A model generated the notes under the pieces. The model was not told the DNA's origin and made no database searches. It worked only from the letters and a program-made list of their open reading frames with translations. Below, piece by piece: positions 33,883 through 35,477 of a stretch of 64,000 nucleotides of DNA (position 1 is its first letter; each line of letters starts with the position of its first letter). Source of the DNA: an uncultured Desulfovibrio sp. (GTDB lineage Bacteria > Desulfobacterota > Desulfovibrionia > Desulfovibrionales > Desulfovibrionaceae); assembly GCF_944327235.1 (NCBI RefSeq), contig NZ_CALVHE010000002.1, positions 19,089-83,088 on the forward strand. The letters run 5' to 3'. The position numbers were made by a program, and so were the translations under genes.

Positions 33883-34851
33883 TCACGCGTTCCGCGCCGG
33901 AAGAGGTTCATTGGCAAATTCGTAGAGCAGGGCGCCGTTGCTCCCGAGACAGCGCGCATGAGGGAACACCCGCTGACATATCTCCAGCCAGGAGAGCGGC
34001 CACAGAGCCTTGTCGGCATAGCGGCGCTCGTAAAAACCGGGCGATGCCATATAGATGTAGCGGCCTCCGGGGGCCAGGCAGTACGAGAGTTTTTTCAGCA
34101 AGGCAAAGGCGGTGGGGAAGTCCGGGATGGCCGTCATGCCTGTCTTGTCGAGGATGAGATCGAAGCGGGGCGGGATAGCGCTGACCTCCTCCGCCCGCGC
34201 GAGCAGTTTGTCGATGAAATCTTCGCAAGGGCTATGCGCCCAGCGCAGATGGGGATAGCGAACGGCGCAGTCCGCAATGGCGGCATAGGAGGCGTCCACG
34301 CCGACGCCGAGGCGTGGCCCGCCACCTGTCGCGCCCAGCGAGCGCATGACAAGCGCCAGCAGTTCGCCCTGTCCGCAGCCCAGTTCAAGCACCGTGTGGA
34401 TGGTGGGGCGCAGATGCGGCGTAAGCATGTCCAGCCATGCGCGTTGTCCCGAGAAGTGGAAGGCTTCTGTACTGTAGAATACTTCATAGGACGAGACGGC
34501 ATCCATAGCGCAATGGTAGAGGATATTTTTTCTGCTGCGTATCAGGAATCTTCTTTCTTGAAGTCTTCTATTGAGAAATATGGCCTGCATGTTGTCGAGA
34601 CAATCTTTGACATGTGTAACATTGGCCGTACAGATAGGACACCAATGGTCGGGATGGATGAGGACCTGTATGGTGATAGGCATTTCTTTGCCAGGCAGGT
34701 CTCGGGAAAGGATATGGTGTTTGAGATTGGTGGATGTGAGTTTTTGCGGTTCTTTACCGGGAATGAAAACTTGCAGATTATTGCCGGAATCGGAGATGGT
34801 GAGATCACGAGGCCTGAAGTATGCCTCATAGTCGAGGCCAAAATCCCGCAT
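33883..34851 (-). CDS. Class I SAM-dependent methyltransferase with an N-terminal domain of unknown function
   Basis: VLELGCGQGE motif I and LILDKTG / LAPGGRYIY blocks in the GC-rich 3' two-thirds. First ATG at 34851, 2 nt after the upstream stop (TGAACATG), with no obvious SD. The track ORF starts at GTG 34872. Confidence 0.72.
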   Translation of the reverse strand: MRDFGLDYEAYFRPRDLTISDSGNNLQVFIPGKEPQKLTSTNLKHHILSRDLPGKEMPITIQVLIHPDHWCPICTANVTHVKDCLDNMQAIFLNRRLQERRFLIRSRKNILYHCAMDAVSSYEVFYSTEAFHFSGQRAWLDMLTPHLRPTIHTVLELGCGQGELLALVMRSLGATGGGPRLGVGVDASYAAIADCAVRYPHLRWAHSPCEDFIDKLLARAEEVSAIPPRFDLILDKTGMTAIPDFPTAFALLKKLSYCLAPGGRYIYMASPGFYERRYADKALWPLSWLEICQRVFPHARCLGSNGALLYEFANEPLPARNA

Positions 34852-34853
34852 GT

Positions 34854-35477
34854 TCAGGCTGGGGATGGACACCGTTTTTCCATCAATTTGAACGACCCGT
34901 CTCTCTCTCTCTCTCTCTCTCTCTCTCTCTCTCTCTCGAAGATTTCATAATTGATGAAACCGTATCGTCTGCACAGGGGAGAGCCGTGTGAGGCAGTACC
35001 GGTGACGTGAAGTCCGTGTGTACGCAGTTCGTCCAGCAGGCCGGCCAGCAGTTCGGCAATGGGGACTCCGGTGGCTGCGGCCAAAGGGATAAGATCGTTA
35101 TGCAGGCCCACTTCATGCCCCATTTCCTGGATGGCCAGCGCCTTTTCGATGAAGCGCCGGGAGACTCGGATGCGGTCCTTCTCGACCGAACCAAAGTAAT
35201 TGCGTTTTTGAGTGATGCCGTCAGGCGGGAGGAAATAATAACTTGAAGCGAACCCGTGACGTTGTTCGACAACGGCCATGGCCAGCGCCGACTGCAGGCA
35301 GAGGTCCACGTCATGGCGCAACTCGATGTGGCTCAGCCTCCGCCAGGCTTTTCCTACCCGCAGTGGGCATACCGGCAGGGGAAGCGCTGCGAGGAAGTCG
35401 CACAGATAATTGATGTCATAGTGGAACGCTCTGCGAAGATCCAGAGGGGTGCCCAAAAACAGGGGATTAGTTTGCAC
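34854..35477 (-). CDS. Polysaccharide deacetylase-like (CE4/NodB-like) protein, terminated shortly after the (GA)19 tract
   Basis: GTG start with AAGGAG 7 nt upstream. The ELRHDVD, GHEVGLHND and TASHG motifs resemble the metal-binding motifs of deacetylase-fold proteins. This assignment is by eye only. Confidence 0.55.
   Translation of the reverse strand: MQTNPLFLGTPLDLRRAFHYDINYLCDFLAALPLPVCPLRVGKAWRRLSHIELRHDVDLCLQSALAMAVVEQRHGFASSYYFLPPDGITQKRNYFGSVEKDRIRVSRRFIEKALAIQEMGHEVGLHNDLIPLAAATGVPIAELLAGLLDELRTHGLHVTGTASHGSPLCRRYGFINYEIFERERERERERERDGSFKLMEKRCPSPA
34900..34937 (-). repeat. (GA)19 dinucleotide microsatellite on the coding strand ((TC)19 on plus)
   Basis: 38 nt of uninterrupted TC on the plus strand, translated as (ER)6 in the upstream ORF. 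It sits 45 nt before that ORF's stop. Confidence 0.98.

Follow-up and report, generated by a model that had tools for sequence, protein, structure and literature searches.

The Helicobacter pylori genes oipA and hopZ carry CT/GA dinucleotide tracts inside their open reading frames (ORFs). In the same species, sabA is ON when its tract holds 7 or 10 CT units and OFF at 6, 8 or 9 (PMC2715451). Frameshift switching at simple sequence repeats (SSRs) also affects surface-glycan enzymes of Campylobacter jejuni, Haemophilus influenzae and Neisseria, namely transferases and methyltransferases of capsule, lipooligosaccharide and flagellin glycans, and produces heterogeneous populations (PMC8437040, PMC13317227, PMC6479036), and slippage in the tetranucleotide repeat of icaC switches the synthesis of poly-N-acetylglucosamine in Staphylococcus aureus (PMC4117637). 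Whether simple-repeat phase variation is truly restricted to pathogens or only appears so through database bias was posed as an open question in a 2025 review (PMC11868660). Here we describe a (GA)n tract within a gene for a two-domain enzyme in a 64-kb stretch of DNA from an uncultured Desulfovibrio sp. (the whole stretch is called the window below). The locus had been singled out in an earlier reading of the window (the original prediction) as a candidate slipped-strand frame switch. Our analysis indicates that this is likely a single gene whose translation is switched by slipped-strand mispairing in the tract, with the window copy in the OFF state.

The mechanism is that of a classical contingency locus, for which sabA is the nearest formal analogue and the glycan enzymes of Campylobacter, Haemophilus and Neisseria are the nearest functional ones. 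As in sabA, where isolates of one strain background differ in tract length, a pure pyrimidine/purine dinucleotide tract lies within the ORF, only one length in three keeps the frame open, and both ON and OFF alleles occur. The H. pylori tracts, however, have 6-10 units and are found close to the 5' end of adhesin genes, where the signal peptide is encoded, in a pathogen with dozens of such loci, whereas the tract described here has 10-22 units and lies mid-gene, in the predicted catalytic domain of a cytoplasmic enzyme of a gut commensal sulfate reducer. Campylobacter, Haemophilus and Neisseria use poly-G or tetranucleotide repeats within glycan loci. The present repeat is a dinucleotide, in a horizontally acquired gene that stands alone and whose part in glycan modification is a proposed one. 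With icaC the locus shares an in-ORF repeat, slipped-strand mispairing and a connection to polysaccharide modification, but it differs in repeat unit, enzyme family and organism. New elements are the host group, the uncharacterised two-domain enzyme family as a target, the mid-domain position together with the unusual tract length, and an apparently convergent second tract. Full-text literature searches returned no report of SSR phase variation in Desulfovibrio or Desulfovibrionaceae, in line with the earlier remark that long tracts of this kind are undescribed in sulfate reducers.

Tract and reading frames in the window

The tract reads (TC)19 on the plus strand at 34900-34937, that is, (GA)19 on the minus strand, uninterrupted and with 100% matches. 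It is the sole dinucleotide array across the window, and even (GA)10 was absent from 100 of 100 dinucleotide-preserving shuffles. The minus-strand ORF that contains it (34854-35477) opens at a GTG (35477-35475) with AAAGGAG (35491-35485) upstream across a 7-nucleotide (nt) spacer, and close orthologs all begin at the same MQTNPL start. Translation through the tract gives ERERER..., then 15 codons (DGSFKLMEKRCPSPA) up to TGA 34856-34854. The first ATG of the downstream ORF (34851-34849) lies 2 nt past this stop with no Shine-Dalgarno sequence before it; the ORF finder placed an alternative start in the same frame, at GTG 34872. Immediately 5' of the tract, TGA 34947-34945 shuts the downstream frame, so the two frames can be joined within the tract only. 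The features of the gene are as follows, where n is the number of GA units, aa stands for amino acids, SAM for S-adenosylmethionine and AF2 for AlphaFold.

33883-35477, minus strand: whole gene, one coding sequence when n = 0 mod 3, frameshifted in the window (reconstruction, single-piece orthologs)
35485-35491, minus strand: Shine-Dalgarno sequence AAAGGAG, 7 nt before GTG 35477-35475 (sequence)
34854-35477, minus strand: 207-aa N-terminal fragment, the ORF as it stands in the window, with stop TGA 34854-34856 (ORF list)
34945-34947, minus strand: TGA closing the downstream frame 5' of the tract (sequence)
34900-34937, minus strand: (GA)19 tract, probable hypermutable switch, encoding (Glu-Arg)n in a predicted surface loop (sequence, length variation, AF2 model)
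34641-34899, minus strand: remainder of the putative N-terminal CE4-like domain past the tract (RVVQIDGKTVSIPSLNM ... LIHPDHW), in the other frame in the window (alignment, model)
33883-34872, minus strand: downstream ORF that OFF assemblies yield, with 329 aa counted from GTG 34872, identical to protein P0007 (ORF list)
34060-34389, minus strand: class I SAM methyltransferase core, residues 363-472 of the 530-aa product, with motif I VLELGCGQG (Methyltransf_12)
33766-33790, minus strand: intrinsic terminator-like hairpin, an 11-bp stem followed by GTTTTG, ~90 nt past the stop codon (sequence)

We rebuilt the gene in silico with 15-24 units. Products of 528-534 aa result when n = 0 mod 3, of 205-209 aa when n = 1 mod 3 (the phase of the window) and of 196-200 aa, ending in ETGRSN, when n = 2 mod 3. 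The repeat unit is not a multiple of 3, and gain or loss of units therefore toggles between full-length and truncated products. As assembled, with n = 19, the window copy is OFF (frameshifted). The original prediction read all of these elements correctly: the tract, the GTG start, its Shine-Dalgarno sequence, the TGA, the 2-nt spacing to the ATG and the stop upstream of the tract are each as described, and the reconstruction reproduces both the expected fusion of ~530 aa with 18 or 21 units and the stop after ETGRSN with 20.

Tract length varies on an otherwise invariant gene

The same allele was recovered on 14 metagenome contigs, each from a different sample, with 0-1 substitutions relative to the window over the 1,560 nt of the gene outside the tract. 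Their tracts contain 10 units (one contig), 13 (four), 14 (two), 15 (five) and 16 (two), compared with 19 in the window, giving six tract lengths among 15 loci (the 14 contigs and the window) separated by 0-1 single-nucleotide polymorphisms per 1,560 nt. Four contigs (L002, L007, L013 and L016) match the window without a single mismatch over 3.6-7.6 kb, but their tracts have 13, 13, 15 and 15 units, respectively, instead of 19. Two further lengths, n = 11 (192 aa) and n = 12 (526 aa, ON), come from protein records in the 90%-identity cluster of this allele. In total, eight tract lengths are found on an otherwise identical gene, with all three phases represented, as a slipped-strand switch predicts.

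Intact products of the window allele include P0030 (n = 15, 528 aa), encoded on five contigs, and P0041 (n = 12, 526 aa), and the 329-aa downstream ORF occurs with identical sequence on nine metagenome contigs. ON and OFF forms coexist: P0030 and P0041 were found within the same studies as fragments of 192-207 aa, and rough contig counts by phase are ~6 ON, ~11 with n = 1 mod 3 and ~6 with n = 2 mod 3. An allele with an interrupted loop, (GA)4-G-(GA)3 (P0002), served as an internal control, and its 36-nt loop was identical in 6 of 6 contigs. Long pure tracts were also present in sister lineages, namely L010 ((GA)12, OFF), L011 ((GA)13, ON) and L012 ((GA)22, ON), the last being the one additional locus returned by a scan of JGI metagenomes by flank pattern. 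At least three Desulfovibrio allele lineages thus keep pure tracts of 12-22 units; in others the tract is short ((GA)5 in L024) or the repeat is lacking (L025).

Several records of the locus have unusual structures. P0038 (488 aa; window allele, on a 19-kb ENA contig) has an in-frame deletion of 40 residues running from LLAG (~146) into the repeat (…LLAG/ERERRVVQ…), which may reflect either a true deletion that ends within the tract or an error of assembly. The contigs encoding P0029 (169 aa), P0034 (168 aa; window allele) and P0237 (185 aa; from the related Mailhella allele described below) end 25-40 codons upstream of the tract, as de Bruijn assemblers do when tract lengths are mixed, which hints at heterogeneity within samples. 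A 207-aa fragment is deposited in RefSeq as WP_297226656.1 (P0028), a C-terminal fragment annotated as 'class I SAM-dependent methyltransferase [uncultured Desulfovibrio sp.]'. A phase-variable frameshift leads pipelines to annotate such a locus wrongly, as fragments.

The native gene encodes a single protein with the tract inside its N-terminal domain

Searching with the in-frame reconstruction returned single-piece orthologs, some 519-532 aa long with 75-86% identity and others 517-561 aa long with 35-44% identity, and an exhaustive profile-free search gave 843 representatives at E <= 1e-3, 61 of them at E <= 1e-30. As the orthologs are single proteins, the fusion is the native form. An invariant tract, or orthologs always encoded as two genes without a repeat, had been named at the outset as evidence to the contrary; neither was found.

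In the alignment, invariant residues of the N-terminal domain lie both before the tract (R54-H55-D56-x-D58, E122/G124/H126/N127, H164/G165 and N176/F180) and after it (Y218/E219, S230/D231 and H276/W280), and the domain ends ~260 nt downstream of the tract, at LIHPDHW. The AF2 model of the full protein (predicted local distance difference test (pLDDT) 88.6, predicted template-modelling score 0.86) places a single N-terminal domain up to residue ~285 and joins it through a long helix to the methyltransferase. Away from the termini of this model, pLDDT falls below 50 only at residues 186-191, the loop encoded by the repeat. With invariant residues on both sides and a single modelled domain, the tract does not lie at a domain junction, and the frameshift splits the N-terminal domain. 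The 207-aa window fragment lacks Y218/E219, S230/D231 and H276/W280, and the OFF state destroys the N-terminal domain rather than yielding two separate working enzymes. The original prediction therefore needs revision in two respects: it had placed the tract at the junction of a deacetylase and a methyltransferase, and it had envisaged a choice between a bifunctional protein and two separate or truncated products, of which the ~530-aa fusion and the truncation stand and the pair of separate enzymes, with one domain cut through, does not.

Relatives without a tract have a short, variable loop rich in Glu, Arg and Lys at the same place (IFEREKRVVQ, IFSRAREGERRVVQ, IFQLRENNEQRIVH), and purine-rich coding of such a loop presumably seeded the repeat. 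In a few family members the order is reversed, with the CE4-like domain following the methyltransferase, and by a Rosetta-stone argument this suggests that the two halves work together. Domain-order variants and subgroups of the enzyme family include P0016, P0067 and P0068 as well as P0063, P0065 and P0199-P0221. One large betaproteobacterial subgroup, of ~940-970 aa, has an extra N-terminal methyltransferase and tetratricopeptide (TPR) repeats.

A second tract in Mailhella

A profile scan of species-representative genomes identified full-length relatives in Sterolibacterium, Accumulibacter, Ideonella, Capilliphycus, Pseudaminobacter and an uncultured mouse-gut Mailhella. The Mailhella copy (L030) is ~35% identical and itself carries a tract, (GA)15, which splits it into ORFs of 223 and 324 aa; with n = 13 or 16 it would encode 547 or 549 aa. 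In its protein cluster, fragments corresponding to n = 11, 12, 14 and 15 accompany an intact 549-aa form (n = 16) found on three contigs. At the DNA level, 24 loci with 0-2 substitutions in 1,618 nt have n = 14 (10 loci), 15 (11 loci) and 16 (3 loci, ON), and tract lengths are mixed within each study.

The two tracts occupy different positions. The Desulfovibrio tract aligns before the strand RVVQI. In Mailhella the equivalent strand (FTLKL) comes first, and the tract stands in place of the hairpin turn that follows it; the closest tract-free relative of the Mailhella copy (P0059) reads ENGRS at the site of the Mailhella tract. Different positions in the same domain are most simply explained by two independent acquisitions, and on this comparison of sequences the tracts of the two genera would have arisen separately in the same domain of the same gene.

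The Mailhella gene has a GC content of 34%, against 59% in its flank, and lies between groES/groEL and a phage-type integrase (PF00589). In loci L107, L113 and L120-L122 the integrase lies ~750 nt downstream of the gene. This copy looks like a small integrated island.

The gene is under purifying selection

Between lineages, pairwise ratios of nonsynonymous to synonymous substitution rates (dN/dS) were 0.10-0.32 for the part of the gene before the tract and for the methyltransferase half; for the segment that follows the tract most values were 0.2-0.6, and well-diverged pairs spanned 0.12-0.59. They were well below 1 in every segment, including between lineages that bear tracts, and tract length was the sole disabling change in any copy among ~40 contigs. 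The gene, along its whole length, is thus under purifying selection and is not a decaying pseudogene.

Segment-wise comparison of window positions 33883-35477 with L010, L011, L012, L018, L024 and L025 also pointed to recombination. Over the three gene segments, the synonymous rate (dS) was 0.58, 0.18 and 0.83 between the window and L012, and 0.145, 0.485 and 0.135 between the window and L011. Such sharply unequal values indicate that the alleles are mosaics produced by recombination, with a breakpoint close to the tract. Protein-level variation is greatest past the tract, in residues ~200-300 (dN up to 0.39), and this segment may determine specificity.

The gene and its ~800-nt upstream intergenic region (34400-36400) have a GC content of 47-55%, falling to 38% at 35800-36199, against a background of 62-67%, which suggests horizontal acquisition of the Desulfovibrio gene. 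Among species-representative genomes, a scan with the single protein found no close ortholog, and distant ones came from the profile scan alone.

Predicted function of the two domains

The C-terminal half is a class I SAM-dependent methyltransferase. It matches Methyltransf_12 in Pfam (32.5 bits against a cut-off of 30), and the fold search with the whole model gave 258 PDB matches at E <= 1e-3 in this half, of which the top 50 are all SAM methyltransferases and the best are small-molecule or natural-product enzymes. A sequence search of the PDB likewise produced matches in the methyltransferase half only.

Across 17 family members, the N-terminal domain had no Pfam match (PF01522 included, and even at E <= 10) and no NCBIfam match. 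As methyltransferases swamped the fold search with the whole model, we modelled this domain separately (pLDDT 86.8). Its three best Foldseek neighbours in the PDB, 2vyo (from E. cuniculi), 6h8l (PdaC) and 1ny1 (PdaA), with probabilities of 0.99, 0.97 and 0.84, are all CE4/NodB deacetylases of polysaccharide or peptidoglycan. At the level of the alignment, a conserved H-D-x-D motif and invariant histidines (H126, H164 and H276) are reminiscent of a metal site. The modelled domain is thus probably a distant CE4/NodB-like fold, and the earlier label 'deacetylase-like' is retained as a distant structural resemblance, not as a Pfam-level assignment. Unlike most classical CE4 enzymes, which are secreted, this protein lacks a signal peptide, and it has no membrane segment either. 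Sorting signals of the type IX secretion system occur on related N-terminal domains from Bacteroidales.

Glycan genes lie near the distant full-length relatives in 5 of 5 neighbourhoods examined, and include transferases of families GT1, GT2 and GT9, a Capsule_synth protein, DegT-type sugar aminotransferases, a UDP-GlcNAc 2-epimerase and a sulfotransferase. By analogy with these neighbourhoods, the most economical reading would be a cytoplasmic de-N-acetylase/methyltransferase acting on an envelope sugar precursor. The surface-glycan modifier of the original prediction gains these neighbourhoods in its favour and keeps the same conditional standing.

A switch model and its alternatives

In the model that we favour, the gene would encode a soluble enzyme of ~530 aa in which an N-terminal CE4/NodB-like hydrolase is followed by a class I SAM methyltransferase. 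Units would be gained or lost by replication slippage at (GA)n.(TC)n, with a 2-nt frame shift for each. When n = 0 mod 3, the full protein would be made with (Glu-Arg)n in a disordered surface loop, which in-frame changes would only lengthen and which should tolerate them. In the other two phases translation would end midway through the N-terminal domain, 196-209 residues from the start, leaving the methyltransferase half untranslated or, at best, weakly reinitiated. Slippage would be frequent and reversible, such that a clone always holds ON and OFF cells among which selection chooses, and the enzyme would modify a cell-envelope glycan precursor in the cytoplasm, for example by de-N-acetylation and then methylation of an amino sugar. 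Frequent reversible switching within a clone, adaptive bet-hedging and the envelope-glycan-precursor role are the parts of this model that we infer.

Several observations weigh against the model. Many contigs have 2-7x coverage, and some one-unit differences could be stutter from PCR or sequencing, a concern that is greatest for the Mailhella 14/15/16 series; stutter cannot explain the ranges of 10-19 and 12-22 units. The data compare samples, and such data do not show switching within a clone, its rate or its reversibility. The Mailhella gene is ON in only 3 of ~60 contigs and could be mostly dispensable there. On the functional side, the CE4 fold matches are weak (E 4e-3 to 4e-2, TM-scores of 0.4-0.5) and come without a Pfam match, and in both gut genomes, Desulfovibrio and Mailhella, the gene lies outside any glycan cluster.

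Two alternatives concern the tract itself. It is unlikely that the tract is a neutral microsatellite in a dispensable or decaying accessory gene, unstable but with states that are not selected and with no bet-hedging, even though the gene appears to have been acquired horizontally (GC 47-55% against 64% here, and 34% versus 59% for the Mailhella copy), was not found in close species-representative genomes and is mostly OFF in Mailhella. Decay is at odds with tract length as the only disabling change in ~40 contigs and with dN/dS well below 1 in every segment; both genera still have ON alleles; and long pure GA tracts at two positions of the same domain in two genera, kept at 12-22 units in at least three Desulfovibrio lineages, are hard to reconcile with a purely neutral microsatellite. 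We regard as quite unlikely a miscount in assembly or sequencing of the window, under which the tract would really be 18 or 21 units long and the window gene intact. Dinucleotide tracts are prone to stutter, and the exact 207-aa product of n = 19 was found nowhere else in a collection of 15 billion proteins, but a tract of 38 nt is well inside the read length and OFF lengths recur in independent assemblies (n = 13 in four contigs, 14 in at least two and 16 in at least two). The polymorphism and the switch would stand even if the window count were wrong.

Two further alternatives concern the product. In a three-state switch, which we consider distinctly improbable, termination and reinitiation at TGA-AC-ATG in the n = 1 mod 3 phase would yield a methyltransferase-only product with a phenotype of its own. 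The arrangement is present in the window, and OFF loci of the window allele verified at the DNA level number eight in the n = 1 phase and two in the n = 2 phase. This excess, however, shrinks to ~11 versus 6 with protein-level counts, there is no Shine-Dalgarno sequence before the ATG, the product would carry ~90 residues of a broken domain, and the Mailhella OFF phases lack such a stop-start (at n = 14 the ORFs overlap by 31 nt; at n = 15 the stop is followed by TTG). Most doubtful of all is a phasevarion-like role, in which a phase-variable DNA methyltransferase of a restriction-modification or MADS-type defence system would alter the methylome. Phase-variable methyltransferases with SSRs are common (PMC5909438, PMC7383803), and PADLOC gave a weak match to mad2 (E 1.6e-9) confined to the SAM-binding core, but motif IV, [DNS]PP[YFW], is absent from the six family members checked, and the fold neighbours are small-molecule and natural-product methyltransferases. 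Both domain orders, moreover, join the methyltransferase to a CE4-like hydrolase domain, and no restriction or specificity genes adjoin the locus, the Mailhella neighbours being groES/EL and the integrase. MADS itself was rejected as an assignment: only positions 275-404 of the 492 in the mad2 profile match (35 bits), and the gene is solitary, with no other mad genes.

Genomic neighbourhood

The gene stands alone as a low-GC insert in either gut genome. In the window it is monocistronic, with neighbours on both sides on the opposite strand, its own Shine-Dalgarno sequence and the terminator-like hairpin listed above; the genes around it encode an AgcS-type amino-acid carrier, a protein of 253-263 aa and a YkuD protein. 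The AT-rich upstream spacer is shared with the divergent carrier gene. Searching Rfam over the window gave nothing at gathering thresholds, and thus no riboswitch or leader upstream of either gene. Promoter-like matches at 35938-35977 were no commoner than in shuffles, and we do not claim a promoter there.

The convergent downstream neighbour (32902-33693, plus strand) is conserved beside the gene in every Desulfovibrio locus (L001-L025), where its counterparts encode 242-253 aa. It has no Pfam or NCBIfam match and precedes a YkuD (L,D-transpeptidase)/Cds6_C protein, a cell-wall context. Elsewhere in the window, the longest homopolymer is an intergenic A10 run at 53767-53776, ~50 nt upstream of a minus-strand start (ATG near 53715), which could be another length-variable site, in a promoter or leader.

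Implications

The convergent (GA)n tracts in the Desulfovibrio and Mailhella enzymes may mean that its product is under strong fluctuating selection in the gut and that SSR contingency operates in commensal sulfate reducers, a conclusion that we put forward tentatively and with slightly less than even confidence. If it is correct, SSR contingency loci, deemed a hallmark of host-adapted pathogens, would also operate in these commensals, and the selecting agents would be phage, IgA (immunoglobulin A) or other antagonists, with the product most plausibly a de-acetylated, methylated envelope sugar. That the same gene would have gained a tract twice marks its product as an important variable determinant, possibly the decoration of a phage receptor or antigen. 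The locus would thus offer a handle on the gut persistence of commensals that produce hydrogen sulfide.

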